NCBI GenBank assembly: GCA_973895155.1
Contig: OZ316896.1
Location: forward strand, 10,303,525-10,367,524
Origin: Marsupella aquatica
Lineage: Eukaryota; Plantae; Marchantiophyta
Length of the DNA stretch: 64,000 nt
Direction: 5' to 3'
The first letter of the stretch is position 1. Each line of letters opens with the position of its first letter. The translations under genes were made by a program, and so were the position numbers. A model generated the notes under the pieces. The model was given only the letters and a program-made list of their open reading frames with translations. It was not told where the DNA came from and made no database searches. Below, piece after piece: positions 1,400 to 60,847 of this stretch.

Positions 1400-3590
1400 A
1401 ACTTGCAAAGTAGCTCGGTGTCTTGAGAAACTCTCCAAAGGAATCACTTTGGTAAAAGCATTAGCGGGATTGAGCTTTCCATCAATCTTGACTAGCTCAA
1501 AAGTTTTTATCAGACACTGCTTGTCTGATAAAATGGTACCTGATATCAATGTGCTTCACCCTGCTATCCATCACCTGGTTAGCAGCCAAGTGAAGAGCAC
1601 TCTGACTATCACAGTTTAGAGTCATTTTTCCATGCTCTAAACCCATCTCCGCGATCAACTTGTCCAACCAAATTGCTTCCTTTGCTGCTTCTGCTGCTGC
1701 AACATACTCTGCTTCTGTAGTAGACTAAGATATGCACTTCTGCAAGGTAGATTTCCAACTGATACATCCTCCTCCAAGAGTAAATACAAACCCAGTTGTA
1801 GAACTCCTTGTATCCAGACAGCCTCCATAGTCAAAATCTACATAGCCAACTAACGTTCTATTTGATCTGTTATCAAATAGTAATCCATAGTCCTGTGTTC
1901 CCTTCAGATACCTGAGAATCCACTTCACAGCTTCCCAATGTACCTTCCCTGGATTTGACATAATTCTACTAACCTTGCCCAACACTAGGGCCAAGTCAGG
2001 CCTAGTACAAGTCATCAAATACATCAGACTGCCTACTATCTTCTCATAAGGAATCTTAGCCATCAGACCTTTCTCCATAGCATCCGTAGGAGAGAAAGCC
2101 GATGATAACTTGAAATGTGAAGCTAAAGGAATACTCACTGGCTTACAGTTCTCCATGTTGAATCATGCAAGTACTTTTCTTGCATACTGGCCTTGACTCA
2201 AGCACAATTGTCCAATCTCAGAGTTCCTAAAAATCTCCATCCCTAAGATCCTCTTGGCCTTACCAAGATCCTTCATCCTGAATTAAGCACTCAATTTTGC
2301 CTTGAGACTGTCAACCTCAGATTGATCTTTAGCCACAATTAGCATGTCATCCACATAGATCACCAGGATGATGAAACCAAATACATCATTCTTGACTGAT
2401 TTTGTATACACACAAGGATCATACACCATCCTTGTAAAACCTTGAGCAAGCATGAAATCATCAAATCGCTTGTTCCACTATCTAGGAGACTGCTTCAATC
2501 CATACAAGGACTTGAGCAATCTGCAAACTAAGTTCTCTTGTCCCTTCTTCATAAAGCCTAGTGGTTGTCTCATGAAGATCAACTCTTCCAAGTTGCCATA
2601 GAGAAAAATAATAACAACATCCATCTGATCCATCACCAGACCGAAAAACACAACAAGCTGACACAAGATCCGTATTGTGCAATACTTAGCCACCGGTGAA
2701 AAGACCTCATTGTAGTCCACTCCCTGGGCCCTCACTCTTACTATATAAAGTGAACCCCCCTGAGAACAGACACCCCCCATGTACCCCTTCTTAATATTTT
2801 TGTTCACAAAAAAAATCCCCTTGTTAATGTAAAAATATTAACTTTTCCTATTAAATTTTATCCTTTTGTAAATTATAATATAGTTTTTCAAGGAATTGAA
2901 AACATCCTTGAATTTTTAAAATTGCAAATATCATACTGAAATAGATAAGACTTTATTTTGCATAGGGGACTTGTATGTTACGCCCTTTGTTTAGGGTACA
3001 TATTTTATATAGTTAAACAAAATTAGTACCAGAGAATTATAGTTCTTCCTGTAGTATACAGACAAGCATGGCTGCACTATCCTCTCAGTGTTCCTAAAGC
3101 CCACGAAACCAAACTTGCCTTAGGACGACAAATAATTAAATGTCTGATTTACTATATGAACATGTGTGCAAGTGAAGTGATGACATGTGTGCCAACCATA
3201 TAGTGACGCGTGTACTTGGCATTTTGGGTACCCTTGCATAAGATTAATGTGACATGTATTTGATAAGAGCCTTATTACTAATATTGTGCTGAATATATAT
3301 ACAAGGATGTTGCCTACTTTAAAAACTATTATAAAAATTAGTTTGCATTACATTAAAAATACCCTTGCGATGTTCGCACGTCCTCCCTGTATTAGTAACG
3401 CTTAGGGCCCAGGGAGTCCACTCCTTTCTCTTGAGTGAACCCCTTGGCAACAAGCCTTGCCTTGTAGATCTTATCTCCACCCTCTGAAGGACTGTCCTTC
3501 AACTTGTAAATCCACTTGCTGTCCACCACTTGCTGATCTCTTGGAAGCTCCACCAGCTCCCATGTCTTGTTGTCACTTAAAGATTGCAAC
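1400..3590 (-). pseudogene. Copia reverse transcriptase / RNase H (stops; interrupted by MITE 2722-3414)
   Basis: Motifs KARLVAKGFTQ, KSLYGLKQSPR, IYVDDML (~2341-2360), TRPDLA, GYVDFDYGG, ISWKSTLQ. Premature stops present. Left boundary approximate. Confidence 0.93.
2722..3414. mobile_element. Non-autonomous TIR element (MITE), copy 1, 693 bp
   Basis: 11-bp TIR CCCTGGGCCCT; 8-bp TSD AGTCCACT (2714-2721, 3415-3422); AT-rich interior; interrupts RT. Confidence 0.92.
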
Positions 3591-3595
3591 TCCCT

Positions 3596-5282
3596 CTACA
3601 TTGTTGCATTCCACTCATGTTTATGCTCTGAAGCACAAGCCTCACTGTACGAAGAAGGTTCTCCTTCTTCCAAGATCAAAGCCATGTCATCATCATCAGG
3701 TGCAATGTCAATATCATCTAGCTTAGATGAGTCTGCCCATTGACCATACCTGGTAGGAGCTCTAGTAGAACGACTGGAAGTTCTTCTACTAGATGACTTA
3801 GGCTGATCTGCTGCTGCTATTGGTTGAATTTGAGGTACCCCAGCAACAATCCGCTCCTCTTGTTCCATCACGAGAACCAGCTCCAAGCCCGGAGCTTCTC
3901 CATCTCTCCTATCATGAACAACATCATGACTAATCTCCCCCTCAACACCGTCTGGGATGGGAGATTTTCCCTTGTCAGTATGGGAGTCCTGAGAACTCTC
4001 CCCCTCCTTTGATGATCTGGACTCATTAAAAGACACATCTCTACTGACAATTAGTTTACAAGTTACTGGATCCCATAACCTATAACCCTTCACACCTTTC
4101 TGATAGCCAAGGAAAATGCACTTCTTCGACTTGGACTCCAGCTTGGATCGAAGCTAGGAAGGTGTAAGCACATAAGCATCACATCCAAAAATCCTCAGAT
4201 GTGAGTAATCTGCTAGACATCCGTACCTCATTTCAAATGGCGTCTTGAATCCAATAGAACTAGATGGAGAAAAATTTACCAAATAAGCTGCAGTGTTGAC
4301 AGCTTCAGCCCAAAACTCATGTGGTAAGCATGATTGACTCAACATACTCCTCGAGCGGTCCAATAGTGTTCGGTTGAGTCTCTAAGAAACATCATTCTGC
4401 TGAGGAGTATAACTTGTTGTGAGATGGCGGGTAATGCCCTGTGTTAGATATTGCTCTAGTCTTGTGACTCATGAGCTAACCACAGTTAGTCTAACTCGCA
4501 TTAGGACTTAGCTAATGTTAGCGGTAGTGCTATTGTGCATATAGCCAGGGCTGATGCCAGACCCTGGAGGAACTTAGGCTCATTGTTACGGAGCTAGTTG
4601 AGAGATTGGGAGAGCTTGTGCTGTGGATGCTTGGTATGGCCGGTCGGCCTAGAGTGCAGTAAAGCTCTTGTGTGTTCCCGTGGACGTAGCCTCATGTGGA
4701 GGTGAACCACGTATCTCTCTGTATCGACTCTTGTGCGTTGGATGGTTCATGGGCTTGCCGTTACGAATGTCGTCTATGCTCAACACCCTGCTCCTTACAA
4801 TACGTTCCAAATTCCCCGGAACAATATTCACCGCCATTATCTGATTGAATATATCTCACCTTATTACCAGTCTGATTCTCAACTTGGGCTTTCCACTCCT
4901 TAAAAGTGGTAAAGACATCAGACTTATTGTGTAGAAAGTATATCCACACATACTTTGAGTAATCGTCTATGAACGTGACATAGTATAACCGTCCAGAATG
5001 TGAGGGAGTAGGGGCTGGACCCCACACATCACTATGTACATACTCAAGTACCTCCTTGCTAGTGTGAACTCCAACTCCAAAGGGTTTCCTGTGCTGCTTC
5101 CCAAACACACAATGCTCACAAAATTCCAACTTACAAGATTGCAAATTAGAAAGTAATCCTTTCTTCTGAAGAATAACCAAACTTTTTTCACTCATGTGGC
5201 CCAAACGGAAGTGCCACAGCCGGGCCGTTTCCTCATGAGATAAGGTTACATTGGCTTCATCACAAACTACACTGCCCTCCAA
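3596..5282 (-). pseudogene. Copia integrase with GAG-pre-integrase region (interrupted by solo LTR 4442-4785)
   Basis: LWHFRLGHMSE, CEHCVFGKQHR, VHSDVWGP, SDNGGEY, FWAEAVNTAAYL, KGYRLWDP. Confidence 0.93.
4442..4785 (+). mobile_element. Solo LTR of the same copia family, opposite orientation
   Basis: Reverse complement of the host LTR; 5-bp TSD CCCTG (4437-4441, 4786-4790); removal restores integrase ...YCKEQG-ITRHLTTSYTPQQN. Confidence 0.95.
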
Positions 5283-5285
5283 AAC

Positions 5286-5975
5286 CCCTGGGCCCTAAGC
5301 GTTACTAATACAGGGAGGACGTGCGAACATCGCAAGGGTATTTTTAATGTAATGCAAACTAATTTTTATAATAGTTTTTAAAGTAGGCAACATCCCTGTA
5401 TATATATTCAGCACAATATTAGTAATAAGGCTCTTATCAAATACATGTCAGATTAATCTTATGCAAGGGTACCCAAAATGCCAAGTACACACGTCACTAT
5501 ATGGTTGGCACACATGTCATCACTTTACTTGCGCACATGTTCATATAGTAAATCAGATATTTAATTATTTGTCGTCATAAGGCAAGTTTGGTTTCGTGGG
5601 CTTTAGGAACACTGAGAGGATAGTGCAGCCATGCTTGTCTGTATACTACAGGAAGAACTATAATTCTCTGGTACTAATTTTGTTTAACTATATAAAATAT
5701 GTACCCTAAACAAAGGTGTAACATACAAGTCCCCTATGCAAAATAAAGTCTTATCTATTTCAGTATGATATTTGCAATTTTAAAAATTCAAGGATGTTTT
5801 CAATTCCTTGAAAAACTATATTATAATTTACAAAAGGATAAAATTTAATAGGAAGTTAATATTTTTACATTAACAAGGGGATTTTTTTTGTGAACAAAAA
5901 TATTAAGAAGGGGTACATGGGGGGTGTCTTTTCTCAGGGGGGTTCACTTTATATAGTAAGAGTGAGGGCCCAGGG
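5286..5975. mobile_element. Same MITE family, copy 2, inverted relative to copy 1, 690 bp
   Basis: Near-identical reverse complement of 2722-3414; 8-bp TSD TCCAAAAC (5278-5285, 5976-5983). Confidence 0.92.
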
Positions 5976-5983
5976 TCCAAAAC

Positions 5984-6944
5984 GTATAGATTGCTATGTC
6001 TCTTTCCCGACCTTCAATACAACTTTAGTACCAGTTGAAACCTGAAGGACACCATTAGCAGAACTCCACTGATGGCCATTTTCTTCTAAAACTCCAAGTG
6101 AAATGAGATTTTTCATCATGCTGGGAATATATCTCACATTCCTCAATGTTCTTACAGCACCATCAAACATCTGAAATCTAACAGATCCAAGTCCAACCAC
6201 TTGACATGGGATTCTATTTCCCATCAACACTGAACCGTTGGAATTTGTATAAGAACTGAAAAAATCTCTCCTAGAGCAAATATGAAAAGTACATGCACTA
6301 TCTAGAATCCAGTCATCACTACCTGGATTTGACACTACGTTGAGAGCATAACCTTGACATCACAATATGTCATCATCATCGAGTAAATCTACCTCATGCG
6401 AGCTCAATGCCGCGTTAGCAGAGGCAGTAGGGACCTTTACTCGACAATCCCTTTTCATGTGGCCAGGCTTACCACAATTCCAACATGCAAGAGGCTTCCT
6501 CTCTTGCAATTTCCCTCTGGATTTAGATCTCCCCCGTGATGTAGATCTAAACCTGTTCTGCCCATTCGTGCGCTGCGCTGCTCTTCCCCTATTCACATTG
6601 AGCGTAGTGCCAGAAGAATATGATGTCTATGATTGACCCAGCTTCTTTTGAGCATCATCAGACAGTAATGAGCTCACCACCTCATAATACGAAATGGACT
6701 TCAGATCTCTATACAAGAGCACCTATTTCAAGCCCTGATATGACGGGGGTAAGGAGCTTAGCAGAAGCAAGGCCTTATCCTCATCTTCAACTTCTTTTCC
6801 CAGGTTTGACAGATCCACCGCTAGACTGTCAAACTCATCCAGGTGATCCTACATCTTGCTCCCTTCCTTGAGCCTAAGGCTCATCAAGAGAGACTTCTTG
6901 TATAGTCGGTCTGACGCATCTTCCCGGTAGTACTTCTCTCTTAA
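5984..6944 (-). pseudogene. Copia gag C-terminal part, zinc knuckle and aspartic protease
   Basis: Zinc knuckle CWNCGKPGHMKRDC; protease WILDSACTFHIC. Confidence 0.9.
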
Positions 6945-7574
6945 AACACGATTTCAGACCGAACGAGAACTATTTCCTCTAAACGAGAAGTGTATTTTCA
7001 TTTTCCGCCGAATCTCGCGAAATTGGCAGTTTTTTTCATCAAAAACGCGTTTTTGGGGAAATAATGTAATTCGTATCGGAGTTTGGATTGAAACAGCAAA
7101 TTTAATAATGATCAAAACCAATGAAATTTATGCTAACAAACATTCATATTATCAAGGAACAATTAGATCCGAAAAACTTTCTCCTCGACCTCATATTCAC
7201 GCTCTCCGAAGATATATGAAAGGTCTTATCTATAAGTCCATATCCACGTTTCGAGCCAAGTGCGATAACTGTATCGGACTCCGGATTTGAGCCACGAAAG
7301 CTTTGACCCAATCTCAGGTTTCTCAATTTTTGGATATTTACCAAAAATATTTTATATCACAGTCGATAAGAATTACTGCACGGTTCGTCAAACTTACCTT
7401 GCAGTTACCTCCGCAATTGACCAGTTACCTCCGCAAGTGACCATAGTCAACATGCCATTTTTTCAACAGCAATGCGCAGTCCGATAAAATTATCGTGAAA
7501 ACTACGGGCGACAAAAATACTAGTCGACAATACTAAGATCCTTCGGTTCATCGGTTAAATTTCAAAATTCCTAT

Positions 7575-7780
7575 CCATATGAAGAAAACTCTTCGCAATA
7601 CCAACATCAGATAAATTTATCGCTTCAATTTCAAAATTGCAACTTCCATATGAAGGAACCACTTTTGCAATACCAACATCAGATAAATTTATTGCTTCAA
7701 TTTCAAATTGCAACTTCCATATGAAGGAACCACTTTTGCAATACCAACATCAGATAAATTTATCGCTTCAATTTCAAAAC
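7575..7780. repeat. Three tandem ~72-bp subterminal repeats, each with GATAAATTTATCG
   Basis: ccatatgaagg...caataccaacatcagataaatttatcgcttcaatttcaaa repeated three times. Confidence 0.9.
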
Positions 7781-8064
7781 TATATAATTTTGCCACAATG
7801 CACGTGTGAGAATGAAATTGGAAATCCAAGAAATATACCCTTTTCTGCTATTTTGTCGTTTAGGGTGACAGCCAATCAAAAGTGGACACGTGGGCCAACC
7901 CCTCAACAGACACTATAAAAGGGCCACCGCCGATAAGTTTTTGGCGTCATTATCGAGAGTAGAGTTTTGGGAGTTGTGTTCTTGGAGCAACATTCTGTCC
8001 GTTGAGCCTTTTGTTTTCCCTGATTGCGGGAGGAATGCAAAGCCCCATAGTGTCTCGGATAGCC

Positions 8065-11000
8065 ATGTCTCAATCAGACACAGATTCACCTTCCAGTTCA
8101 GTTGAATCCTCTCCTAATCTTGTCGCTCGCTGTTTGCCAAGTCGCATACTTAAAGCTCTACCTCTCTCACAGCAAATAGTGCCCAAAATCTGACTCAGAT
8201 TTTGATGCAAGTTCTGGTTCTGAGCCCAGTGCTTACTATGTGTCGCCTAGTAAACCTGAGAAGCATCGTCACTTGAGCATTCCATCGCCAAGAAATGAGA
8301 AACTTTCAATCCCAGGTTTAGGTCCGAGACGTCGCTTCAGGCCATCCATCCCGGGTTATGGAGAGGGTATCCGGCGACCGATACGCGTATCGCAGTCGGC
8401 ATTCAAGTCGCCACATTCAACACAAGTTCAATGACCGATCTTTCAGTCTCTGGGTGAGGATCGGGACACAGAAAGACAAAGACCGATACAACGATCGGTC
8501 TTTGCATTGCCTGGACTGGATGTGCGAGCAAGCGAGGGAATTGGACTGCGAAGTCCAGACTCAGCCCTTTCTCGAATGGTCCGTGGGAATCATGGTGAAC
8601 AAGTGCTCAATTTTCCAGCAGCTCGCGGAGTCGTTGGGACTGCACGTGCGAATCCAGAATCTCCAAGTTCTCAAGGGCGGACTGTCATTGGTTCCAAGCT
8701 CCAAGTATCGAGGAGAGGTCTTAGTGGCGTTCGGGTTATGTATAGAGAGCCACGGAGTCCAATTGTGTTTTCAGATGAGTCGAGTGCATCGGAGGACGAA
8801 GATGAGGAAGGAGATAGAGAATCCGATATAATAGCACAAGTTGTGTCTGAATGTTTAGAAGGAGCTGTCGAAGAGAATAGCTATAGTCGTCTATTCAGTG
8901 CCCCTCTAAATGCGTCAAGGAGATCTATAGAGGATGGTAGCTTAGCAGAGAGTGATGCATCTATTCGCGAGGCACCTGAAGGACCCAAAAATGCAATGTT
9001 ATGAACGGATTTCAGGTTGTAGAGAAGTCAAATGAGCCTAGTAAAAAAGATAGGGACCGAATTACTAGGAAAGACAATGTGATAAATGACAAATTGAATA
9101 GAAACAAAATGAGAGAAATTCATAAGTATTCGTGTTGTGATAATTACTGTCTGCGGAATTTGGATCTGCTAACCGTGATGAAACAACGCACTTATTACTA
9201 TGGGCTATCCTACCCAGAGAAGAACGTCCTTCCAAGAGGATGTGTGAAGGGTGGGCATGCTGGTGCAAGTGGTTACTCAGTTAGCGGTAGATCCTTTTGT
9301 CGGAGTAGTTTTAAGAAATTATTTTCACTAGGAAATAATCGTCTCCAAAAAATCTCGCAGAACATGTTTTCTCGGATACAGATCGGTACAGTTTGTCAAG
9401 AAAAATCACCCGCACATCTTGGTCTCGTCTAATGGCTGGATGATTTTTTTCCAGAAATGTCGAGAGTCTCCCCAACAAGGATATCTTTCATTTACCTGAC
9501 AATTGGACAAAAACATAAGTTTTTGATGCCTTCCAGTCCGAAACTCTAATGCGCCAAGAACAAGGCATGACATATTCGTGGTTTCTTCGCATTTGGAACA
9601 AGGAGTTTCCTCGCGTGCGCATCCCCAAAAGGAGCCGTTTCTCCACCTGCGCCCCGTGTACTGAATTCAAAGCACTCCGTGACAAGGCAACACTCGAAGC
9701 AGAAAAGAGTAAGTTTCTAAACCTGTGTGTTACTCCCGATAATTTTATCGGGTTGAGTATTCATGTGCTTCTTCTTTGGCCATGTGAGTGAATATATCGT
9801 TTGAACAGTTTGAATACTGAACCTGATAAATTTATCGCTGTCACAGTTTTTCATTACGGTCGTGTGTTTGAATACTGAACCTGATAAATTTATCGTTGTC
9901 AGGGTTTATCATTACGGTCTTGTGTTTGAATACTGAACCCGATAAATTTATCGTTGTCAGGGTTCAACATTACGGTTATCATGTTTTGTCCTAAACATTT
10001 TTATTATTGTAGGAAAATTCTCAACATTGCTAAACGAGCATCGGAAGGCACAAGCAGTCGAGAGGGAGAAGTTAGCAAAGCACCGGAGCAAATGTTACAA
10101 GAGCCCGGAGAAATATTTAGGCATCTGTATTGATGGAATGGATCAAAAGAAGACAGAGTTACCTCATTTTATTTGGTGTCCGAAGAATATGGATGAAAAG
10201 TATTTCATCCCCGTACACGTAGTGGGTTGTTTGATCTTCAACAAACAATTAAGTTCAAATGTTTTTTTGAACTATCCAAATATTCACAATGATAGCAACC
10301 TGACCATCCACGTTATCCAGCATATTCTGAATACCTGGGAAGGTCTGCTCCCTCCAGTGCTTTACCTCCAGCTTGATAACACAGCTCGGGAAAACAAGAA
10401 TAAATATCTTATGGCATATTTGAATATGTTGGTGGAGATAGGTGTTTTCCAGAAAATAAAGGTTGGTTTCCTATTGGTGAGGCACACCCATGATCAAATT
10501 GATCAAATGTTTAGCAAGTTTTCTTCAAAATTGAACAAGCGGAAAGCTTTCCGATTGGACACTCTTTCAGCAATCATAGAGGAATCCTACAATCCTACGG
10601 CAAAGATATTTTTCGTCGACGAGGTTGCCGATTTCAAGAAATTTGTGTCAGACAAGGATCAAGCAAATGACAAGGATATGGATGGTCAGGTTCTACGTAC
10701 TCTCCACGACATAAGTGCTCAAAAACAATTTTGGATTACTAGAGTACTTGAAGATGGAAGTGCTCGGTCCGTATTCCATGCCAAACATCTTTCAACGACA
10801 ATCGATTGGGGGGAGACGGTGGATTTTGTTCGGTACATTCCATCATCTGGAATGTGGGTCGCACCACAAATAGCATTGAAGTCGGCCACGGGAGCGACAG
10901 GAGACAATGAAGAGCAAGAGAATGATGCTGAGGAACAAGATGAGCGAGCAACTCAAAGTTATTTGTCAACTCTTCAAAAATATCGAAGAGCAATTGAAGA

Positions 11001-11621
11001 TGGATTCAATTACTTTGATGACGCAGATCGTCTATGGTGGGGTCGTTTTTTGATAAACAAAAAGAAGTGATTCAGCACCACCTGAAACCTGCACAATGGA
11101 GTTTTGATTGGAGTTGGCCCAAGGTAAACGTATAGAGAGAACTTCCGAGTAATCCTACGGAAGCAGCAATGGAACCTAGCTTGGTTGATAAAGTAGCGGG
11201 TGTGAGGACAGTCATGTATTCCGGAAGTCGAAGAAAAGTCACGGAAATTGGAGACTTCAAGGATCTAGAGGTGAATACTAAATTTGCAATGATATGTGTA
11301 GCAGCCCATCAGGATCCCAAGGGAAGACCATTCTGGATGGCAAAAGTGACTGAGATTCTCACAAGAATTAATGACATCCCGGAGCGGATTAAAATCACTT
11401 GGTATGTAATGGATTCGGAGGAAGAGTCTGCAATTGAAGGCAGATATTATCTGGAGAAAGAGGCTTCGTCTAGCAAAGTACTGGAGGATGAATTGTCCCT
11501 ATCAGAAACTACCGTTTATGCGTATAACTTTGCGTTATTGGCAAATAGTACTCTCCCTATACAAACAAGACGAATCATTCAAAATGCAATGGAGACTGTA
11601 GTCGTTGATAATCGAAGCTAG
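8065..11621 (+). pseudogene. Sola-like/DUF7869-type DDD/E transposase of element 1, disrupted
   Basis: SCCDNYCL, FSTCAPCTEF, ICIDGMDQKK, LYLQLDNTARENKNKY, VRHTHDQIDQMFS. In-frame GT-AG intron 9709-10012. Stop at 9430 and frameshifts near 9000, 9450 and 11050. Start position approximate. Confidence 0.8.
9808..9978. repeat. Three tandem ~58-bp repeats in the transposase intron, each with the element-1 palindrome
   Basis: tttgaatactgaacctgataaatttatcgttgtc...cattacggt repeated three times. Confidence 0.9.
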
Positions 11622-11948
11622 TTTCAGGTTTAAGTTATAATGGTTATCGTTCCCATGAATATGTACAGTGGTTATCGTTCTGGGACTATGTACTCCGCAG
11701 CTATAATGATGTTTTTTTTAAAAATAATTTCAATTATAAACCAGTTAGAGAATACAATGCTGTCCGATAAGATTATCAACAACTCCATTCCCCCAGCAGG
11801 AACACCGCGACAGTCCGATATATGCAAAGTCCGATAAATTTATCGCATTAATAAATGTGACAAAGGTTCTTCCTCATGGAATACAGAATCCGATAAATTT
11901 ATCGACAACTTCATTGGTGATTGACATTATCCTAACGAGCACACGCAA

Positions 11949-14900
11949 CTAATCTAATAACATGTCGTTGAGATCATCCTCATTTGGTGTTCTGGGAGGC
12001 TCTTCCTCAGTTTCTTCTTGTTCCTCTTCGGTCTCCTTCATGACCTCAACTACGTAAGTCGATGTCCCGAGAACACCCAATTGGCCTGCAATTGGTGGTT
12101 GAATCTCATGACCTTCAATGTCGTGCCCTTCAATCTGGGATTCTTCATATAAATTCCAGTTTGACTCCAAAATCATGATCCGGGATTTTACAAAATCAAT
12201 CTGCGCAGAACTCTTATCAACAGCACAACCCTGGCGAGAATTGAGGAGCATAGCAGCTAATATCGATCCGGTTCCACAACAAAGATCAATAACCCAATCC
12301 TCTTTCTCAGAGAAATGGGAAACAAACCAAGCCCCCAAACCAACAGGCTTCTGATATGGGTTCACAACAAATCCCAACGGATCAACGGACTTCTTGGTTA
12401 CACATGGAACCTTGATGATATTGACGCGAGACTCATCCGGTTGGAAATTGTACATGTTCATGTTCCGAATGCCTTCCTCGCTATAGAAACCTATCGACCA
12501 GTTCTCAAAACCCCACGCCAATCGAGCTCCAACGGGACGCTCATGAATGTTAGTCTTCTCCCAGATTCCAGCCTCGACCCCACAGTTGCATACACTCTCC
12601 AGTGCAGACATCACCATATGCGTTTGTTGTAGTGAAGGGATCACAACAAACCTCCACTGCTTAGCGGTCGTCATCTTTGAGAAACTTGTCAACATGTCTA
12701 AAATATCCTTTTCTGTGAAGGCCACTTCATCAAACTCCGAACCAGGAGCATTAAAACCATACGGAATATCCGCAACCGCAAGGGTGTAAGCCCTTGGCTG
12801 AACAAAAGAATCCAAAATTCGAACATCACCAACATGGAGATAGTAGGGAAAAGAATCCCCGTCTGCATTTTTCCATGTTTGTTCAAACGCTTCTGCTCTG
12901 CCCTCGCCTAAGGACCTCAGCCTATTGTACTTATCGATTGCAGCAAGCACAAAATTCTTAAACACATAAGGGATTTCAGCTGAGGGAACAATAACCTCCC
13001 CCGCAGAATTATAAGTGACAGCCGGAATCACTTTGCTTTTCCTTTTTGAATTAATCTTCAGCTGTAAGAATGTCAGACACATCTACAGTTAGAATAGCGT
13101 GAGATGAATGCTAAAGCCGATAAAAATCTCGCGATGGAGCACGCTAGCCAATAGATGGAATCGCTTAGAAACCAACAAAGGAATTCTAAAGCCGATAAAA
13201 ATCTCGCGATAGAGCATGCTGTGAGAGGAATGCTTACCGCGTCACTCAATTTCTCCGCCCATATGCCAAGGACCAAGACATCTGTTTTGTTGGGAAACAT
13301 TTCTCTGCATGTTGCCCAATCTGGCTGACCAGATATCTGCAAAAATAGTTTCTTCACCTTGGCAAGATTTTTTAACTTCTCACCTTCCTTGTGCATTTGA
13401 TCCAAAGTGATCACCTTCCCGATAACCCTATTCAAGAGACGCTTGACATGCTCCTTATTTGACAGTCCTTGGAGACCTCGAAATGAATTTAAGTTGAGGT
13501 CACCAGCAAGTTTATTCATTTTAATCTCCCTTACCGTCAAAGGTTTTACCTTTCCCTTTGCGTTTGTCATTGCCACAATTTTTTTGGGTTGTCCTAAGAC
13601 AATACCTTTCTCCCACATCTGGAAAATCTTCTCCTGAAGATCCCAAATTTCACCTGTTCGGAAAGCAATTTGGAAAGCCGGATCATGTTTGGCCATGGAG
13701 TCACGAACTCCTGGCGTGTACTCCATCATGCATTCTTGACAACATGCTTCGCGGACATCTTTAGTCGAGCCCACACCCATTTCAAGGAAAATATTGTGAC
13801 AAGCGTGAACTTGGTCAATTTTAGTCATGTTCTTCCGATACTCCTGGTCATAGTTATGCTGGAAGCCTAACTTTCGGACCTTGGATCTCGTAAGCCCAGC
13901 GTAAACCCAAGCTTCCAGCTCACCATATATTTGCTTTCCGTACATTTTAAACAACTCGGACTTTGCCCGAGCAGCATGATTCCCTCCAATAATTCTATAC
14001 TTCCATACCCTTGACTTCAGGATGTCCCAATCTGCGGTTGTGGGACAATCCTTCGGATCCACACACAGCACGAACGGGGCACTAAAGTTGGTGGGGTTTT
14101 TCATGAGAAGTATCTTGATATTTTCCACATGCAATCTATCCACTGGTCTAATCAAAGTTGACAAATCCCCCTCCTCATCAAATATGAGATTGTCGACATG
14201 CAGAAGCACAGTTGTCCTTTGCACCCTTCGTTGCATCAGAAGACTGAGCTCTGCCTTGATCGCGTCCGTCTCATACATCGAAAGAGCCGTCTCCTCCTCC
14301 TGATCAGCCTACAAAAGCGTTGCAAATTCAATTAAGGAAAGAAACTGCAAGATTTTTATCGGAGTTCGCATTTGTTCAACATAACTCCACAATCCGCAAT
14401 TCAGGAAATAAACAGCGAGATTTTTATCGGATTTCGTATTTGTTAAACAGTACAACGATGTAGTACTTACCAATGGCGCCGCAGGAACCGCGACTGGAAC
14501 TGATGGAATTGACAGAGCTCTATCTACTTCTACAGCCACCGTCTCAGTCCTGCCAGTCCTCTTCCTCTTTGTGCTAAGTCCAGAACCAGATGGCCCGGAT
14601 CCCTCGGATCCTTTACTTTTGCTTGGTTTAACGTATGGTCCTCGACGGTTGCCCCGGCCTCTCCCACTACCGCCAGTTTCCTGGCTCTTCTTCCCACCGT
14701 CAGAGGTTCCCGCGGCATCTCCCCTGCCGCTACCTCTCCCTTTCCCTTTTCCACTTCCCGAAACCCGACCAGAAGTTGTAGGTTCGTCCACATCAATATG
14801 TGTAGAGGATTGCAATGGTTCTTTCCGCCCCGACATTTCATCGACATTAGAACCACCGCTGCCACTTGAACCTGGTTTCTTGAAAACAATTTTGCGGACA

Positions 14901-15439
14901 GGTTTGAACTCTTCACCCACAAGTCTCTTGTACTCTGCGTTCACCCTTGGAAGCATGATGGCATCACAATCTTGCACATACTGGCCGATCCAAGCCGAAC
15001 CCATAACATTCATCTCTCTTGCTGCCCGAACGTCGGCAACAAGGGGATCTTCTGGATAACTGTCCATCGATTTCTCATCAAAGTTATCAAGAGTAACAAT
15101 GAGAGATGTGAAACCCTTGCGCCCACACATTGTCAAGAAACTAAGGCCCTCTGTCAACACTTTTCCCTCCCCGTGGCCAACCATGAACTCGACGACGACA
15201 ACAGCAATGACAGGGCCATACGAAACATTAACCTTCGCCAATTTTTGCAACTGGACCCAAAGGATTGGGGTAGCACAGTCTTCAAAACCCGTGGACTGTA
15301 ATCTAGCGTCACGGAAGTACCATGACTTCTTGATACACTTGACCTCTTCACAAATGTCTTCACTTGTCCAAATTGCATTGGTGAGGCTTGTCATGAGACT
15401 TTCTGCCTCAACAGATCCACTCTTTCCACTAGCAACCAT
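11949..15439 (-). CDS. Three-exon ParB/Srx-fold + beta-class N6A/N4C DNA methyltransferase fusion, ~1050 aa (exons 15439-14471, 14308-13238, 13061-11949)
   Basis: Both introns (14470-14309, 13237-13062) are GT..AG, phase 0 and join the ORFs in frame. ParB-like RPVDRLHV...YRIIGGNHAARA. MTase motif IV ADIPYG precedes YQKP and motif I VIDLCCGTGS, the beta permutation. Acidic tail. Confidence 0.82.
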
Positions 15440-15621
15440 GGAAAAGTCTGCAAATAAACAAATTCCAATGCAAAGAGCGATAAAATTATCGCCGCCAATC
15501 TCACAGCACATGTGGACACGACATCTCATCACACAAGGACAAAGAGACCGATAAAATTATCGCAAAAGTGAGCCTTCTTTAAATTGACGACCGAGTGTAC
15601 AGGTCGAAGAATCAGCTACGG

Positions 15622-15664
15622 AACCCTAAATCCAAAACCTTAACCCCTAAACCTAAACCCTAAT
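15622..15664 (-). promoter_or_regulatory. Telobox-like (AAACCCTA-type) cluster upstream of the ParB-MTase gene
   Basis: aaccctaaa...aacccctaaacctaaaccctaa, upstream of a probable 5'-UTR intron (~15449-15600). Confidence 0.45.
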
Positions 15665-15713
15665 CATAGTTGAACCTCACCAGAGCGAAGCGTTCGATCC
15701 GCTTCTTGGGCCA

Positions 15714-16373
15714 TTAGGGAATATGAGTGACGCGATGATCATAAGCCCACATCCAATGGAAATCAACTTCACCAGTCTCAGGATTCACTACTGCTACTGA
15801 ATACCGGCGTGACGGAATGTCACAACAAGCATTTGTGCAGCATGGACAGATCTCACCATTGGCAAGGACGTTCGTCCACAGGCAACTTACATAGATCAAG
15901 TTAAAGAGCCCACAGACCGGCTGGGGGGGGAGTTGTTGAATCTTGTATGAATATAGTTTCCCACCAGTGTCAATAAAAAACTCGATGGCAAGAGGATTGT
16001 CCAGCTCGTCAATCACATCCTGAATCTCATCGAATGCTCTACGTCTGTTGTCAGCATAGAATTCTGGCTCATAAGCAAGATTGCCCTTCACAACATGACA
16101 GCAGTGGAGTATAAAACGTCTTACTGCACCGGTTTTCAGAAAGAGTAGGATAACTCTTCTAGAAAATCCAACATATCTATCCCACTGAATATAAATTTCT
16201 CCCCCTACCTGATCTACGTAGAAGTGAAATGCGTTATGGTAAAACGGTTTTACTACCAACCTGCATATCTTTAAAATTAGTGACTCATCCAGCCTCCTTA
16301 GCTGGTCCAGCATGGCTCCATTCCCCCATTCTGGAGGATTCGGGTAGGGTACAAAAATGCGTCGCTCGAGCAT
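15714..16373 (-). CDS. Hypothetical cargo protein of element 1 (219 aa, Cys-rich C-terminus)
   Basis: Open 660-nt ATG ORF inside the element, co-oriented with neighbouring cargo genes; no recognised family. Confidence 0.55.
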   Translation of the reverse strand: MLERRIFVPYPNPPEWGNGAMLDQLRRLDESLILKICRLVVKPFYHNAFHFYVDQVGGEIYIQWDRYVGFSRRVILLFLKTGAVRRFILHCCHVVKGNLAYEPEFYADNRRRAFDEIQDVIDELDNPLAIEFFIDTGGKLYSYKIQQLPPQPVCGLFNLIYVSCLWTNVLANGEICPCCTNACCDIPSRRYSVAVVNPETGEVDFHWMWAYDHRVTHIP

Positions 16374-16665
16374 GGCCTGATCACCGAATAGAAATCAGGA
16401 ATAAATTTTGGAGAACATACTAATTACAATTCTACAAGTTTCATCCAACTTTACAGTACCTTGTATAACGGGCTGTGAAGCCAATGCACTTGTCAGCTAA
16501 TCGTCCGAAGAGGCGTTAACAAATACACTCTGGACCACACAACCCGAAGTCAGGGGAGGGAGAGTCAATTATATTCAAAGTGTTTCTTTACAAGCACCCA
16601 AAATCGACTAGAGGAATGAGGAGTGCGATAAATTTATTGGATGTTCGCAGCAATGCCTCATCCAC

Positions 16666-17214
16666 TCAGACTCGTCCATGCCATGCAAGAATTGTTCGCT
16701 TCCCGCTTTCTCCAAGATTTATCCAAACTCTACGAAACTGATCTAACTGCTCATACGAAAAGCACCCAAGCATATCTATGGGAGGGAGGAAATGAGTTTC
16801 CTCTCGGAAGACCCTAGCAATATGTAGGTTTGAGAGAAGGTCGGCATTAGGAATGCTTGCGAGCATTTTGTTTATGTCATTGATCTCACGGACTGCATAT
16901 TTCAATAGCGCCCAAAATCGTGTACCAACAACAAGATGGTTCCATTTCTTGGAGGTGGCTCCAAGACAAATGATTGTTCTCATTCGAGTCAGTCGTTCTT
17001 CTGGTAGAAGTTTTAGGTCAAGGCCAAGGTGTTCATCTTGTGTGCAAGACAAGGCTAGGAGGGGCCAAATGTGAGATTCAACAAGTTGATCGGGAAGTCC
17101 ATTCAACAAACTTCCGCATTCCACACCGGGCACTTTTCCTCGAATATATTTCCTACGCTCGTGGGCTGAAACGGATCCCATCTTTGCAACGATTAGATTC
17201 ACCGATGCAGCCAT
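16666..17214 (-). CDS. F-box-like cargo protein (182 aa)
   Basis: LLNGLPDQLVESHIWPLL...LGATSKKWNHLV; homologous to the three ORFs at 60.8-62.6 kb. Confidence 0.7.
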   Translation of the reverse strand: MAASVNLIVAKMGSVSAHERRKYIRGKVPGVECGSLLNGLPDQLVESHIWPLLALSCTQDEHLGLDLKLLPEERLTRMRTIICLGATSKKWNHLVVGTRFWALLKYAVREINDINKMLASIPNADLLSNLHIARVFREETHFLPPIDMLGCFSYEQLDQFRRVWINLGESGKRTILAWHGRV

Positions 17215-17408
17215 GAAGCAGAGCTACCAAAACCACCAATAAAAATACCTTCAATCACCAGGTGTAACTGAACACATCCACAGTACCAACCCTGCACGAC
17301 AGCTTAACGATTAGGACTCGTGACGTATTATATTCGCTGCGCAAGGGTAGGACTTGTTTATTTAAATATGTCCTTCCAAGATGCGCCTCAATGAAAAGTT
17401 CGAAACAC

Positions 17409-17738
17409 TCATCGTGAAAGGTTCACCCAAGGGTCTTCGTTCCAAATCTTACAATAGAAGTGAGCCTGTTTGTGGTACTTGTTGTCAAGACGACGACAAC
17501 AATAGTTACAAGAAAACTCCAAAGAATGTAAACACGCCGTTAACATCAACCTCAAACGAATTGGAACTCCTGCATCATTCATTCCGCAGAATTCAATGCG
17601 GAGAGGATTCTGCTTATCTCCAGGATCAGTACCACCCATCCACAATGCTCCTATACCGATGGGGAGAACTTTGAGTCGCACGAGTCTCTTGTACAACCGG
17701 CGTGCACGTTTGACACAATTTTCAAGGAAGACAGCCAT
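17409..17738 (-). CDS. Possible small cargo ORF (109 aa)
   Basis: ATG ORF co-oriented with the other cargo genes; no homology recognised. Confidence 0.3.
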   Translation of the reverse strand: MAVFLENCVKRARRLYKRLVRLKVLPIGIGALWMGGTDPGDKQNPLRIEFCGMNDAGVPIRLRLMLTACLHSLEFSCNYCCRRLDNKYHKQAHFYCKIWNEDPWVNLSR

Positions 17739-18651
17739 TTGTCACAATACCTGTTGTCCACGGAGTGCAATCGACCTTCCATTGTGCCTCCTAAACTCGG
17801 CAACACTACGACATCAGAGATGAAGATGAGTCTCCAAATAAAACAAAGGAAAATGATTCTCACAGGAAGATGCGATAAGTTTATCGCACTCCGCATTCGA
17901 ATTGAAAATATGACTTCCTCAAACACCTAAGCCCTGAATTCAATCTTTCACAAAAATGACAACTCCGATAAATTTATCGGATTCTCAATTGCTCCTCTTT
18001 CCATCAAAGGAATGAAGACTCCGATAAATTTATCGGAATGAAGGCAACACCTCTCTAAACACTGGATCAAATGATTGCAACAGAGGAATGCAAAATGCGA
18101 TAAATTTATCGCAGTCCGCTCGGATCTGGACATTTTACACTAAATGACTAGTTAGTCTTACATGGAGAACTTGAACAGGAATAGCTGTTCCGATAAATTT
18201 ATCGGGTTTTTGGTAGAAAGAGTCAAATCGCTTGGGAGGAATGTAAGACTTGATGGGAGTTTGGTATTCGCTCTCAATCAGGAGATATTTGCTCTGGCGA
18301 AAGCAAACATTTTATGGGCAGCCCGCTCCTCTTTATATAGGAGACGCTCTAAACCATGGTTAATTTCCCCTTAACCATGGTTAATTTTCTCCTTTACCTG
18401 GGTTAGTGCGTGGTCGTTCCTGGATTACGCGGTTCGGACCAAGTTACTCGCAGTTCGGACTTTTTCACTAACGGAATGTAAAACCCGATGCACGTATCGC
18501 TCCCTGCATTCCCGCGGCGATGCAATGGAGGAAAGTGGCATTTCGGAGAGTTTTTTCCAATTTTATCGGTCATTGCATTGCCTTAGAAAAAAAACGGGAT
18601 CGGGCTAAATGAGAACTCTGACACACTTTTCGGTCGGTCCGAAATCGTGTT

Positions 18652-19135
18652 TTAAAGCCTTGAACAGTGACGCGCAATCCGCATAATCATCCAACTGCTT
18701 GATGATATGCGGCTTGAGATATAGCATCACTGCATTGACAGCAATTACCTGCTCCTGTCTCCACTGTCTCACATAAATCTCCTCCTCTCCATCATACTGC
18801 TCTCGCGAAGAGAGCAGATAAGCTAAGCCCATGTCCCGTAGAACACCCTTCACTTGCTTCTCCCACAGCAAGTAATCAGTACGACCATCGTACTTCTCCA
18901 CCTCAAACTTCACTCCTCCAAATCTAGCCATCTCCCTCTTCTTCCCTACTACCGATAGCTCTGGTAGTAGTACAACTTCCTCCAATGCACGCCTCACCGG
19001 TGATCGTACCGGTGATACAAGTTCCTCCTCAAATGGTAACAGCTCCTCCTCAGACTCTCCGTCTGACCGTTGCGATCCTGAAGCTCCACCGACGCCAATT
19101 CTTCCAGTATCCTCCGAGTCACTCATATGAAACAA
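18652..19135 (-). pseudogene. Copia gag N-terminal part
   Basis: KFEVEKYDGRTDYLLWEKQVKGVL. Removing 6945-18651 plus one TTAA rejoins the frame as ...SLFKALREKYYREDASDRLYKK. Confidence 0.9.
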
Positions 19136-20764
19136 TCACGAAAAAACGTCTTTTTTTGAAACTTCTCACAAAACTCAAAACTCAACACCACCGCGTAGCC
19201 CACGAAGCTAGGAGTCCAATACTGAAAGCCGGAATCAAAATTGAAATTCGACGGAAAAGTTATTCAAATTTTGGTCAGGGTGGGTAAAACCTTGGGAAAC
19301 TCCCCCATTTTGACCACCTCGGAGAATAACCAAAATACCTAGTACAACCTGTCGTCGGAATTGCAATGTGATCGGTGCGCCGCGTTGCTAACTCCAGTGG
19401 CAATGTCCTCGCCAAAAAAGAACCAAAAAAGTTATCATTCGGGGGACAAAATCTTTGTCGGACGGTCAAAAAACAGCTGTCTGTTTTTCAGGAATATTCC
19501 CGCACAATCCAACAGGTCTCATAGGGGGCCGTTCCCCCTGTCGGAGCGGTGAAAATGGAGGGCCACCGGGCCCGGGACAGCCAATAGAAGAACCGGGAGG
19601 AAAAAGTTAAAAAATTGGCCTAAAAGGGGGGTAAAAGCCCCTTAGCAAAACAAATACGCCAAAACGCGCATCCGCGTTGTCGGCGAAATCTTTAGTTCTT
19701 AGGAAGCACTGAGCTCTTGTTTTTCCTATCTTGGAAGAAACCTTTCCAAAATACATCTTTTCTCACCTCACATTACCCTTGCGATCCCCTTTGTCGATCA
19801 ATTTCTCTCACCGTTATACTCTAAAATATCTCTCACAGCCTTTATCCCACTCTACGATGAGCGGCTTCCTCACACTAAGCCTCAAATCGGCCTATCCTCT
19901 TTCCACATAACTTACTTCCCAAGTCAAGTCATAGATTGCAATTTCCAACGAATCCTACAACTAGATAAGTCAATTATAGAAAACAAAGACTATGATCTTA
20001 ACATTTACCATAGATGATATAATCACAGGCTCTAGCATCCTAAGCATAACATTGTATCTTTTATCTCCATATTTTCTAACTAAAACATCTTTACAATCAA
20101 CCTTCTTACGACATACCACTCTAATGTCAATAGATGAAGGAAAATCAGACACATTATTAGGAAGCCTATTCAAATCTAACTCCGGTACATTTATGGATTG
20201 TCTATTAAAATCCATCTAATATAAAATAAAAATAGTTACATTCTATTCATTTCCATAAACAACAATCGGGTATACAAATGGTGCATCGCTATTCATAACT
20301 ATTTCCATTAACTCAAACCCAAAATGATAAAGAAGATGCATTCTCATGGTATGTTTGCTAAAACAATGAATTCTAATTAAAAAAGGATTGACAAATGACA
20401 CAGCAGGTGGGGGATAAACTCTAGGTACTCCATTTATCATATTATTCATTACAAGCACACTAAATTGATCTCAAGACTAATAAACATAAAACATAAAATA
20501 GTTCTAAGGCTAACAATCAAGTTAGTACCCAAGCATGGAGGTAAATAATAAACAAGACATGTGCACAAGAGGGGAATAGTTTCTTACATTGTTGCGAGTC
20601 CAACACGATAGATCAAACAATGCGAATGAGGAGAGTGTGCTCCTCTTCACTTTATTTATAGTGCCATTTTGTGTTTTCCAAGAGGGCATGGATCGATGCC
20701 TTGACCCTTGGATGGAAGCCAAGTGGCAAGCATCAAGCACCTATAAGTGTGCTAGTACTATTCA

Positions 20765-21008
20765 TAGTTGGTGGAACTACTGTGCGTAGTTGGTGGAATT
20801 ATTACGCATAATTGGTAGAACTACTATGCGTAATTGGTGCAACTACTATGCGTAGTTGGTGAAACTACTATGCATAATTGGTGCAACTACTATGCATAGT
20901 TGGTGAAACTACTATGCGTAATTGGTGCAACTACTATGCGTAGTTGGTGGAATTACTATGCATCTAGTTTGTAAAACTACTATGCGTAAATGGTGGAACT
21001 ACTGTGTA
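20765..21008. repeat. 22-bp tandem minisatellite, ~11 copies
   Basis: Unit tagttggtggaactactatgcg with variants. Confidence 0.9.
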
Positions 21009-23386: not shown

Positions 23387-26300
23387 TTCATGATTAAATT
23401 CTAACTTTGGATTTCCGGCCAACTTATTTTTCCCCTGACAAATTAATATTTGAAAAGAATTGGCCACTTTAGGCTAAAATTGACCAAAATTCATACAGAG
23501 CTACTTACTCTATTAAACCACACCTGCTGGATCATATATATAAAGGCCTCCAATACATCTCATTCTATCTTGTGGTGAATAGATCCAGGGAGATCTGATA
23601 ATCACAAATGGGTCACTCATTGTAGGGGGCAAGGAACAGTACACATGATGACCCCTAAATTTTCTATATCCAACTGCCTCACCCAACAACAACCTGGTTC
23701 ATAACATCCATTTTGGGGACTCCTCATTTTGCTAGCAAACTCACTAGCCGTTTTGAGTCATAAAAAACACAAAATATATACAAGGCAACGGAAAGCAAAA
23801 GAAAATTTAAAACATCTAGTGTCTCGCTAACAAAATTCATGTTTGCTAGCACTATACACTACCTCACGATCACAAATTAACTTATCGCACTGCCAAAAAG
23901 ACAGGAGGGAGCGCCAAACCGGGAGACATGGTTCCAAAGGCAAAAAAACCCAATAAAGGGGGGAAGCAAAAGACCCAAGAACACCAAAGAGGCCCAAGAA
24001 GTCAATGAGTAACCTAGCAAATAAAATCAAAAGACAAAGGAGAAAACAACAAACAAACAACCCTACTGGCTGTAAACTGAAAAGCCTGGGAGAACTAGAT
24101 AAAAAATATTCCTAGGCACACCAGGTAATATCTCAATACATCTGAAAAACTGTGTAAGTTTTACACACTATTGTTTTTCCAGTTATTTGTTAAGTGTGGT
24201 GGGAAAATGTTAAATCGCCCTCAGATCCATTAGCACAAATTTTTGGGACGCTTGGGATGAGATACGAGTAGTCGCAGTGAAAGTGAACTTGCGAGCCCTG
24301 GCATTTGCTCCAGTTGACCGTTCACTCATTGGGTCTGTGGTACTTGGGCCACAGTTCCTCCAATATCTTCGGTTTCTTCCTTTGACCTTCCCTTCCTTTC
24401 TTCACGACAATCTACTTTGGTTGTAAAGATTATATAGCGATACAGGAGTAACAATTGTAATTTGCCTACGCCCACGATCTGTAGTGTGCAGGTTTCCCTG
24501 GCTCCTGGAATGGTACTCATTGTTGTGAACTTGCCAATCTTCCTTTTTCGGAAGCGCAGAGCTCATTTACTCAGTTGACTACCTTGTCGTTGCTATCCCT
24601 CGATCCGTCGAAGAACCGACAGCTATAATACGATGTCCAAGGTGCTGAATATTACGAGCACTGATCTACCGAGCCCGATCAACCCTCCAGTGCCACTGCA
24701 TGTTAATTCATCATCATCCAGCGATTTTCTGGATTTCAACCATGAACACAAGGAGACTGACTCTGCATTATATCACATTCTTTCTAGATTCTAACCATGT
24801 CTGGAACCCTTCATTGAAGAACTTCACGGCCATCTGATTCGCTGTACAAATCATTTACTTGTGCCAAGAACGTACCGGTTCAATACCTTGCCTTGACCAG
24901 TACATATCTTTAATAAGGAATTAGTAAACTGTCCAATATATTGCAGTTCTCTGTTTTTTATCCGACCCAAAATGTAGGGAAGGATTAAGAAGGTTATTTG
25001 CAGATGATTTCCATCTGTGTCATTAAAGCTAGCTTTCTACGTACACAAGGAGGTTCCCTTCCGCCCTAAGTTACAGGGGCACACACGAGTTTTGCCCACC
25101 ATGTACGTGGCACTAGTCTACATATTAGTCACAATGGGTGAGTTATCGATCTATGCTGGACCTCAGAGCTCCACATACTCGAGCTTTGTTCCATGGCGGG
25201 TTCATCTCCCGAGCCAGTGTCGATGTCGAGATGACTTCTGATCACATGGTAAATTCCAAGAGTACCCGAAAGGATCACACTGTATTACTTGGAGAAAACT
25301 AAGGAAAGGTAGAAGGGTTTGCTAGGCGCCCAACACATTTTGATCTGGATGCAGTTGACAACCAGCTGCACTGGAGTGATTCGTCCCCAATCCAGTGTAA
25401 TCCCGCCCTAAAGAAGTTCTATGTCCTCTAACCCGCCAAACAATTCCATGGTCTCATCTTCAGTATCGGTAGCCTCTGCCGTTTGATGTTGCTGCTGCTC
25501 TTGCTAGCTGACGATGTGTTGCGTTGGCGTCCACAATATCCTCACGTTGTATTTCTGGCAATTGTAACGGCATGCTGAAGTCACGATACTCCAGCTCAGT
25601 GAAGCCGGGGGAGAAGCACCTTCCTTTCGGCACCAGAGCGTTGTATCTACAGATTAGCATCTGCAGGCCTTCGATACATGAGTTTAGAACCGAAACTTTG
25701 TCAGCCTTGCGATTAAAAGGGGTGGGCAAACCCGTTAACTCCAAATGGACAGCTTTCAAGCCCTCCTTGATTCGCTTTCGACGTTTCTGTTCTGCAATTC
25801 TATGGGCTTCAGCAGTCCGACTTCTTTTGCCGGTGCTGGTTTGTTCTTGACTGGGTTCTGGAAGCCCATCCTTGCTCTCTCCATCGTGTGACCCCGCAGC
25901 ATCGGGGACCTGCTCGTGTTGCATCGTTTTGCCCTTCAAAGCCAGACGACGTGACATACTCCCGTCGTCGCTGGTCTGCATCCAGAACGGCTTCGTTGGT
26001 GTTCGAGCTCCAAGATGCTCCAACTGACAGTGCGCAAATTGTGCCAGACGAAAACAATTGATTCAGTATTGCATGCGCAATGTGTATTCAATTTTCGCCA
26101 AAGGAAAGGAAACATGAAGGCCACGAACAGTCGAGTCCCGCAGAGAAGGAGAACGAGGGCGCAGATACAAACATCCCAGGCGCGTTACCCTCGCAGTGAG
26201 TGGCAAGTTAAATAGTGAAATAGACCGCACGCGAGACTTGGAACTCCCGTTCTACTTCGATCGCTTCTGCTCTCCTGCAGCTAGCGGTCTGGTCGGGCTG

Positions 26301-49639: not shown

Positions 49640-49834
49640 AGTATTAGATTAATTCCAATTTTATCTAAATATTATTAGTTAATGAATGATCAACCTCTTT
49701 AACATTTGGTGGGATAGTCAAAAACTTCAAATGTTTTGTTGCAAGATCTTTATAACAATGCATCACTAAATGACATGAAGTACCTCTTGATCCATGCACA
49801 AATCCTTAATTAAACTATCATTCATTGTTTCAAT

Positions 49835-60712: not shown

Positions 60713-60847
60713 CGAAGAAACATTTATGATTTCACATTGTGACCCGAAAAAATCAGTCTCAAAGAATTGTTTATGCATTCTGATTTGTAGACGCGACCAG
60801 TCGCGTGAAAATAATCTCTGGGATATATCATTTGGCTGAAAAGAGTC

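Follow-up and report, generated by a model that had tools for sequence, protein, structure and literature searches.

The 64,000-nucleotide window analysed here (Marsupella aquatica assembly GCA_973895155.1, contig OZ316896.1, positions 10,303,525 to 10,367,524) contains an 11.7-kb DNA transposon, at 6945-18651, inserted in the gag region of a copia retrotransposon. The element carries a transposase gene of the DUF7869 type, a gene fusing a ParB-like part to a DNA amino-methyltransferase (ParB-MTase), an orphan open reading frame (ORF A), an F-box-like ORF and a second short ORF (ORF B). The preliminary description of this DNA had placed a ParB-methyltransferase gene in the transposon, convergent with the transposase, and both points stand: the two folds are matched on predicted models, the 1050-aa frame is open, and the two genes lie on opposite strands with their 3′ ends facing each other across a spacer. 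A feature absent from that description is a short palindrome, specific to the transposon family, that is dispersed through most of the non-coding parts of the element and kept out of its exons.

The ParB-MTase gene is modelled as three minus-strand exons separated by GT-AG introns; an alternative acceptor 6 bases on yields a protein of 1048 aa, and an intron in the 5′ untranslated region is possible at 15448-15680. The N-terminal domain encoded by exon 1 is conserved at 32% in two of the metagenome loci described below (L001 and L004), and an Atlas search with this exon gave no usable match. Sequence-level ParB matches for exon 2 are weak. Its predicted model (pLDDT, the predicted local distance difference score, 62) resembles Spo0J, PadC, Noc and KorB (Foldseek E 5e-4), with VIA alignments of 100 residues to PadC (Z 8.3, root-mean-square deviation 3.0) and of 142 residues to Spo0J (Z 6.8, deviation 8.8), and it displays the ParB family order of an N-terminal fold followed by a helical DNA-binding part. 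A homodimer of exon 2 is also predicted, with a score of 0.42 against 0.00 for the best control, at least 40% of contacts agreeing between runs, and pLDDT of at least 65. This mark was passed by 21 of 30 solved microbial self-pairs, by none of 23 single chains, and by just one of seven eukaryotic pairs without an older solved relative; the pass may reflect a memory of ParB dimers.

Exon 3 matches the folds of CcrM, N4CMT (the third Foldseek match) and PvuII (E 3e-13), and has the beta-class order in which catalytic motif IV precedes the motif X-I that binds S-adenosylmethionine (SAM). The canonical beta-class motif IV is (D/N/S)PP(Y/F). Across 116 aligned rows of the family, a DxPY form is kept in 88, as DIPY (46), DVPY (12), DAPY (10), DPPY (9), DFPY (6) and DLPY (5). 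With motif IV of this form, and DIPY in the window element, the protein is a putative methyltransferase of either N6-adenine or N4-cytosine type. Compared with the metagenome loci, the proportion of non-synonymous differences (pN) is 0.28-0.35 and that of synonymous differences (pS) 0.78-0.85 in the ParB and methyltransferase parts, with one of the compared ParB exons carrying a stop; both parts thus bear the signature of purifying selection across relatives. At E ≤0.001 the methyltransferase family comprises 1249 representatives, distant methylases included, and the ParB part is also present in 24 of 175 proteins examined, most of the remainder being short. Named members, among the 20 looked up, come from Chara braunii (4), Adiantum nelumboides (2) and Ginkgo (1); these Chara, fern and Ginkgo relatives suggest that the ParB-MTase module is widespread outside flowering plants. 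One Chara braunii protein (P0047, 1825 aa) contains two ParB-like and two methylase-like stretches, perhaps through the fusion of two gene models or through tandem duplication. Searches with narrow patterns returned 57 matches in viral contigs and 32 in prokaryote genomes, none of which was confirmed as a close ParB-MTase relative, and tblastn against phages gave weak methylase matches (21-26% identity and E 0.06-0.4 among the matches listed).

The 14-bp palindrome CGATAAATTTATCG occurs in 7 exact copies, and in 19 copies at up to two mismatches, all of them within the transposon; the remaining 52 kb of the window has none, and the best palindrome in each of 8 shuffles reached a count of 2-3. 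Both arms hold five sites each (those on the left at 7263, 7482, 7609, 7681 and 7752), the transposase intron four, the convergent spacer and the region 5′ of ParB-MTase two each, and the spacer between ORF A and the F-box-like ORF one, with no site in an exon. When three mismatches are allowed, sites also appear in both ParB-MTase introns, and the gap between the F-box-like ORF and ORF B has none. The terminal inverted repeats (TIRs) are free of the palindrome.

A metagenome scan recovered 10 related loci, six of them close and four distant and short (L007-L010). In the six close loci the methyltransferase is 55-59% identical to that of the window element, and the exon layout is shared as far as the contigs extend. 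Each has its own variant of a 14-bp, CG-bounded inverted repeat: CGATCCAAACATCG in L001, CGAGAC-NN-GTCTCG types in L003-L005, and mixed CGATAC/GTCTCG types in L002 and L006. Taking the window element and these six loci together, with exon limits drawn from tblastn, 75 of 76 sites lie outside the known exons, which make up 54-76% of the DNA and hold a single site. Further, the trinucleotide AAT stands at a distance of exactly 11 bp from the core, on its outer side, in 89 of 152 arms and 66 of the 76 sites; the count involved no choice of orientation, and the background is about 0.02 per position. Many sites fall in local tandem duplications (58, 71 and 189 bp). These counts show that the palindromes are family-specific and kept out of exons, with AAT fixed 11 bp outside the core. 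The element thereby displays the feature expected of a VANC-like system, namely, family-specific motifs in the non-coding parts of the transposon itself.

The limits of the transposon are sharply defined. On the left, TTAA (from 6941) is followed at 6945 by AACACGATTTC, and on the right GAAATCGTGTT ends at 18651 and is followed by TTAA (to 18655), giving ends of the form AACACG…CGTGTT whose TIRs agree in 17 of their 18 outermost bases and in 26 of the outermost 32. Excision of the transposon with one TTAA brings the two copia gag halves back into one frame, downstream of which lie four stops, and the empty-site joint of 6940 to 18652 is seen in all four sequencing runs, in contigs that derive from other copies of the high-copy copia. 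Read depth at 6945 climbs from 61-484 to 1729-10668 (22- to 52-fold, in each of the four runs). Contigs from other insertion sites, loose-ended and with unrelated flanks, end at 6945 (at least 27), 6944 (at least 19) and 6942 (at least 2) among the contigs listed, beside 37 further rows; the runs come from two studies and hence are not independent. Of the 48 loose-ended contigs listed, 46 share at most one base of TTAA at the terminus, and in 21 an A adjoins it. The insertion site by itself is compatible with a duplication of 0, 2 or 4 bp; the loose ends at the left terminus settle on 4 bp. Thus, the left terminus is 6945, the target-site duplication (TSD) is 4 bp, TTAA at this site, and TTAA is no fixed target of the family. 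A TA duplication and TTAA-specific targeting are both excluded by the loose ends at other insertion sites. The host copia is itself broken up by a 693-bp sequence in two inverted copies (2722-3414 and 5286-5975, 98% identical), possibly another small insertion, and further loose ends at 5976 mark a boundary.

The transposase matches DUF7869 at E=1.7e-48 and retains the motifs IDGMDQ, QLDN..NKN and HTHD, a set that we take to be linked to Sola transposases. The closest among its named relatives are hypothetical proteins of fern and liverwort origin (37-48% identity), and one further locus has a transposase 68% identical; together with the copia host and the GT-AG introns, these relatives would indicate a non-flowering land plant. 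DUF7869 is not mentioned in the literature searched. In this copy the gene is broken by frame changes near 9440 and 11045 and a stop at 11133, positions at which other copies, seen in run contigs, differ. CACTA/EnSpm elements have CACT termini and duplicate 2-3 bp, neither of which is seen here, with AACACG ends and a 4-bp duplication. Kolobok duplication is TTAA-specific (PMC9587614), a rule broken by the loose-ended contigs; the RR…YY termini of that superfamily agree with the AA…TT ends, which are non-diagnostic alone. The 4-bp TSD agrees with Sola1, but the AWWT target preference credited to insect Sola1 elements (PMC3845634, citing Bao 2009, in its accessible part) is not seen, with TTAA here and varying flanks elsewhere. 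The evidence supports a multi-gene TIR transposon of the Sola1-like cut-and-paste type. Of what had been claimed for its structure, the delimitation by TIRs, TTAA flanks and gag-frame restoration is borne out by the junctions, the excised frame and the empty joint; the question of a TTAA or TA duplication resolves to 4 bp, TTAA in this instance, without TA and without TTAA specificity. "Complete" applies to the structure and fails for coding capacity, the transposase being broken in this copy. Of the Sola/DUF7869-type motif set, the DUF7869 domain and DN..NKN are present, and the GHTH of relatives reads RHTH here.

Run contigs cover transposase and cargo end to end (all 30 bins, 4 runs), and four of the six close metagenome loci extend to a convergent transposase, with the contigs of the other two stopping short of it. 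This shows the transposon to be a member of a multi-copy family, and agrees with the earlier proposals that the internal genes move as a unit and that the lineage is a multi-gene one with a DNA-modification module, ParB-MTase recurring opposite the transposase in related loci. Among the remaining cargo, ORF A has no Pfam, PHROG or Atlas match. The stop codon at 15714-15716 that closes it is found in this copy alone; elsewhere in the family the frame is about 17 codons longer and crosses a putative donor site for splicing of the ParB-MTase leader. As an extra coding exon of ParB-MTase it was rejected, with no in-frame GT-AG join in the ranges tried. The F-box identity given to the next ORF is weak, as its Pfam match (E=0.076) falls under the cut-off; an LPD…IWP…W pattern is conserved. 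The window's second DUF7869 element has three paralogs of it, with 23-34% identity; two of these reach E 0.015-0.021, also under the Pfam cut-off, and their presence makes it a recurrent cargo. ORF B has no Pfam or PHROG match, and Rfam gave 0 matches. Two joints, 7940 to 17857 and 8458 to 9696, each seen in a single run, suggest internally deleted derivatives of the family. Among the 40 of 1181 rows from which copy differences were counted, 20 fall in coding frames; 3 of these are synonymous, 15 are non-synonymous and 2 are stops that other copies lack, consistent with neutral decay of this copy.

Features of the transposon and of the second DUF7869 element in the window
Feature	Positions	Strand	Basis
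Left TSD TTAA, 4 bp	6941..6944	.	excised site and contig ends
Left imperfect TIR (AACACG…)	6945..6976	+	depth jump and loose ends fix terminus
Left arm, 5 palindromes (≤2 mismatches) and 71-bp triple repeat	6977..8035	.	
DUF7869 (Sola1-like) DDD transposase gene, broken; start inferred	8036..11621	+	
Transposase intron (inferred), 4 palindromes, three within 58-bp tandem repeat	9710..10012	+	tblastn gap to P0204
Spacer between convergent transposase and ParB-MTase genes, 2 palindromes (3 at ≤3 mismatches)	11622..11948	.	
ParB-MTase exon 3: beta-class N4/N6 amino-methyltransferase, motif IV DIPY then QKP…DLCCGTG	11949..13061	-	
ParB-MTase exon 2: ParB/Srx N-terminal fold and helical region aligning to Spo0J DNA-binding part	13238..14308	-	
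ParB-MTase exon 1: N-terminal domain without known family and low-complexity linker	14471..15439	-	
5′ of ParB-MTase start: 2 palindromes, telobox-like run (15620-15665)	15440..15713	.	
Orphan ORF A, 226 aa between stops	15714..16394	-	
F-box-like ORF (weak)	16666..17223	-	
Short ORF B, 110 aa, putative gene	17409..17741	-	
Right arm, 5 palindromes: 17873, 17966, 18022, 18098, 18191	17742..18619	.	
Right TIR (…CGTGTT)	18620..18651	-	
Right TSD TTAA	18652..18655	.	
Second element, transposase	50703-53911	-	DUF7869
Second element, three F-box-like ORFs	60815-62596		
Second element, ORF with weak ParB-like box	62648-63826		

The second DUF7869 element occupies 49800-64000 and continues past the window edge; its ends were not found. 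It has a palindrome of its own, CGCGACCGGTCGCG, in 15 copies, some of them in 189-bp and ~250-bp tandem arrays, with the outer AAT on 0 of 30 arms. Its ParB-like ORF is weakly matched (HHalign probability 0.4%; 6.9 bits with a wider profile, where the highest of 200 shuffles scored 2.5). A telobox-like run (51845-51885) lies in its transposase region and a CTCGCT/CTCGTC microsatellite-like tract at 58130-58460. Elsewhere in the window, bHLH-like ORFs at 25460-26062 (Pfam HLH E=1.5e-4), 34827-35477 and 43566-44030 sit in repeated blocks of 1.4-3.4 kb, 81-94% alike and both direct and inverted, and may be the cargo of another mobile element. A 22-bp tandem array of ~10 copies lies outside the transposon at 20727-21000.

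We propose, with a probability of about one half, that ParB-MTase serves the self-marking of its own transposon, likely against host silencing. The protein, as the predicted dimer, would bind the 14-bp palindromes in introns, spacers and arms; the ParB dimer would read the variable core in a parS-like act of self-recognition, and the constant AAT one turn away would be read through another DNA contact, probably that of the methylase. The methylase would then mark the transposon's own DNA, an adenine in or beside the outer AAT being the target we would guess first, and the mark would likely counter host silencing. The transposase would mobilise the whole unit, for which this copy, with its broken gene, would need a sister copy. 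We read self-marking as directed against silencing because the palindrome layout matches that of the sites of VANC21, which lie in introns, between genes and in terminal DNA. The parts of this proposal differ in weight. The ParB part quite probably binds the palindrome; we lean slightly toward an active methylase; and an anti-silencing purpose, argued by analogy with VANC, is plausible at somewhat less than even weight. More tentative is a general form of the proposal, in which, among transposons of non-flowering streptophytes, the ParB of each family would read its own parS-like 14-bp palindrome and so place the fused methylase to deposit N6-methyladenine (or N4-methylcytosine) at the AAT one helical turn off, protecting or activating only its own family.

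Several observations weigh against self-marking. The four distant loci have no such palindrome above shuffle level; the six close loci share a single metagenome as their source and resemble one another at 60-90%; the motif was picked for each locus after inspection; and sites inside one locus multiply by local duplication. Exclusion from exons is also what coding constraint alone would give. Motif IV of the window element is the non-canonical DIPY, with DPPY in just 9 of 116 rows. CTPase ParBs carry an arginine patch in the ParB box, and this patch is not present in the GGNH-type box of the family, which reads GGNHAARA in this copy and GGNHGARA in 20 relatives. Nor was this copy spared decay of the cytosine-methylation (C-to-T) type: where copies differ inside the element, this one has A/T and the others G/C in 21 of 31 listed cases, and 17 of the 20 listed coding-frame differences alter or stop the protein. 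The observed-to-expected CpG ratio is 0.85 inside the element, 0.42 in the left copia and 0.89 in the right copia piece; it was discarded as a sign of protection, being inconsistent, with the right copia piece as high as the element.

Three other explanations account for part of this pattern. ParB-MTase might coat and bridge the palindromes, pairing the ends of a long element, with the methylase fold merely binding DNA. The two arms hold 10 of the 19 sites, the TIRs are short and imperfect, a dimer is predicted and motif IV is non-canonical, all of which fit; yet nine sites lie deep inside, in the transposase intron and spacers, and the conservation of the SAM-binding and DxPY motifs, with pN far under pS across the methyltransferase domain, speaks for more than a structural part. 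We regard this explanation as unlikely. To about the same low degree we credit a role in which the protein, in the manner of KorB at its operators, damps the transposon's own genes to spare the host, methylation serving as a repressive mark. The transposase, ParB-MTase, ORF A and the block of ORF B and the F-box-like ORF do all have palindromes upstream, the fold matches include KorB and Noc, and the host N4-methylcytosine enzyme of Marchantia, as far as the accessible part of its report goes, shows that amino-methylation can serve plant gene control. However, sites also occur at the convergent 3′ ends and in introns, as they do for the activator VANC21 in the accessible account of it. Least likely of all is that the palindromes are transposase-binding or neutral repeats and that ParB-MTase aims at another target. 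The placement of many sites within local tandem duplications would suit that explanation, as would the fact that ParB-less Sola1 elements were left out of the palindrome comparison; against it, the TIRs lack the palindrome, and its length, CG ends and outer AAT spacing are kept over seven loci whose synonymous sites are saturated.

If self-marking holds, it would represent a second plant transposon counter-silencing system, unrelated to VANC, and a defined source of amino-methylated bases in plant DNA; the general form, if true, would amount to sequence-programmed amino-methylation in land-plant nuclear DNA by a retargetable writer. An explicit candidate site, which varies from one sister family to another and keeps its outer AAT at a fixed distance, makes binding, specificity and the methylated base directly testable.

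The published systems are compared here from the accessible portions of their reports. The gene pair of ParB-MTase and transposase is already known from Sola1-1_Ec32 of the brown alga Ectocarpus (PMC12477816), which leaves novelty to the degree implied earlier unsupported. That element, whose best match is Sola1-1_PPa, likewise encodes a ParB and N4/N6-methyltransferase protein opposite the transposase (1104 aa there, 1050 aa here), has AAC..GTT-type ends (AACCG-CGGTT there, AACACG-CGTGTT here) and a 4-bp TSD biased to end in A, comparable to the A found by the terminus in 21 of the 48 contigs listed. It differs in its brown-algal host, its length of 21.5 kb and its 282-bp TIR, against a plant host, 11.7 kb and a TIR of ~30 bp here, and the F-box-like and orphan ORFs are extra in the liverwort element. 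In this comparison, made from descriptions, the accessible part of the Ectocarpus report mentions no dispersed palindrome. In Bostrychia, the Plavaka (EnSpm) genes PAG2/PAG3 combine a ParB domain beside inverted-repeat arrays with a PF01555 methylase (bioRxiv 10.1101/2025.02.11.637652), again a transposon-borne ParB with inverted repeats, a methylase and proposed self-binding. There, however, the transposase belongs to another superfamily, ParB and the methylase sit in different genes, the former fused to a 2-oxoglutarate oxygenase and the latter to SET, and the repeats adjoin PAG3, whereas here the palindromes run through most non-coding parts. Both groups of authors propose self-binding and self-modification; as far as the accessible texts go, these 2025 algal proposals name no site sequence, for which the present element offers an explicit candidate. 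A chlorophyte and chytrid family of ParB-HTH (helix-turn-helix)-fused Dam enzymes belongs to another methylase group (Iyer 2015, PMC4738411). Our literature search found no report of a land-plant ParB-MTase transposon, with subscription journals, Repbase and Dfam outside that search and related elements perhaps listed in the Bostrychia supplements.

VANDAL elements are a Mutator-like transposon group. An analogy may be drawn with their VANC proteins: in Arabidopsis, VANC21 binds non-coding DNA of its own family, whether in introns, between genes or at the termini (PMC5735166), and VANC and ParB-MTase are both transposon-coded accessory proteins with family-specific non-coding motifs spread by tandem duplication. 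Beyond this, VANC causes loss of 5-methylcytosine, whereas the present protein joins modelled ParB and amino-methylase folds. With the bacterial ParB/Spo0J-parS, KorB-operator and Noc-NBS pairs it shares the fold, the predicted dimer and short palindromic sites in many copies, and it departs from them in being fused to a methylase, in being encoded by a spliced nuclear gene and in having GGNH where they have the arginine patch; no ParA partner was seen. Like Marchantia MpDN4MT1 and bdelloid N4CMT, it is a eukaryotic beta-class amino-methyltransferase of bacterial type; those two are host genes, the former with the motif TSPPY in its accessible description against DIPY here, whereas this is a transposon gene with a ParB domain. 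What the window element adds to these systems is a probable land-plant setting, a per-family palindrome code in seven loci, and the fixed outer AAT.

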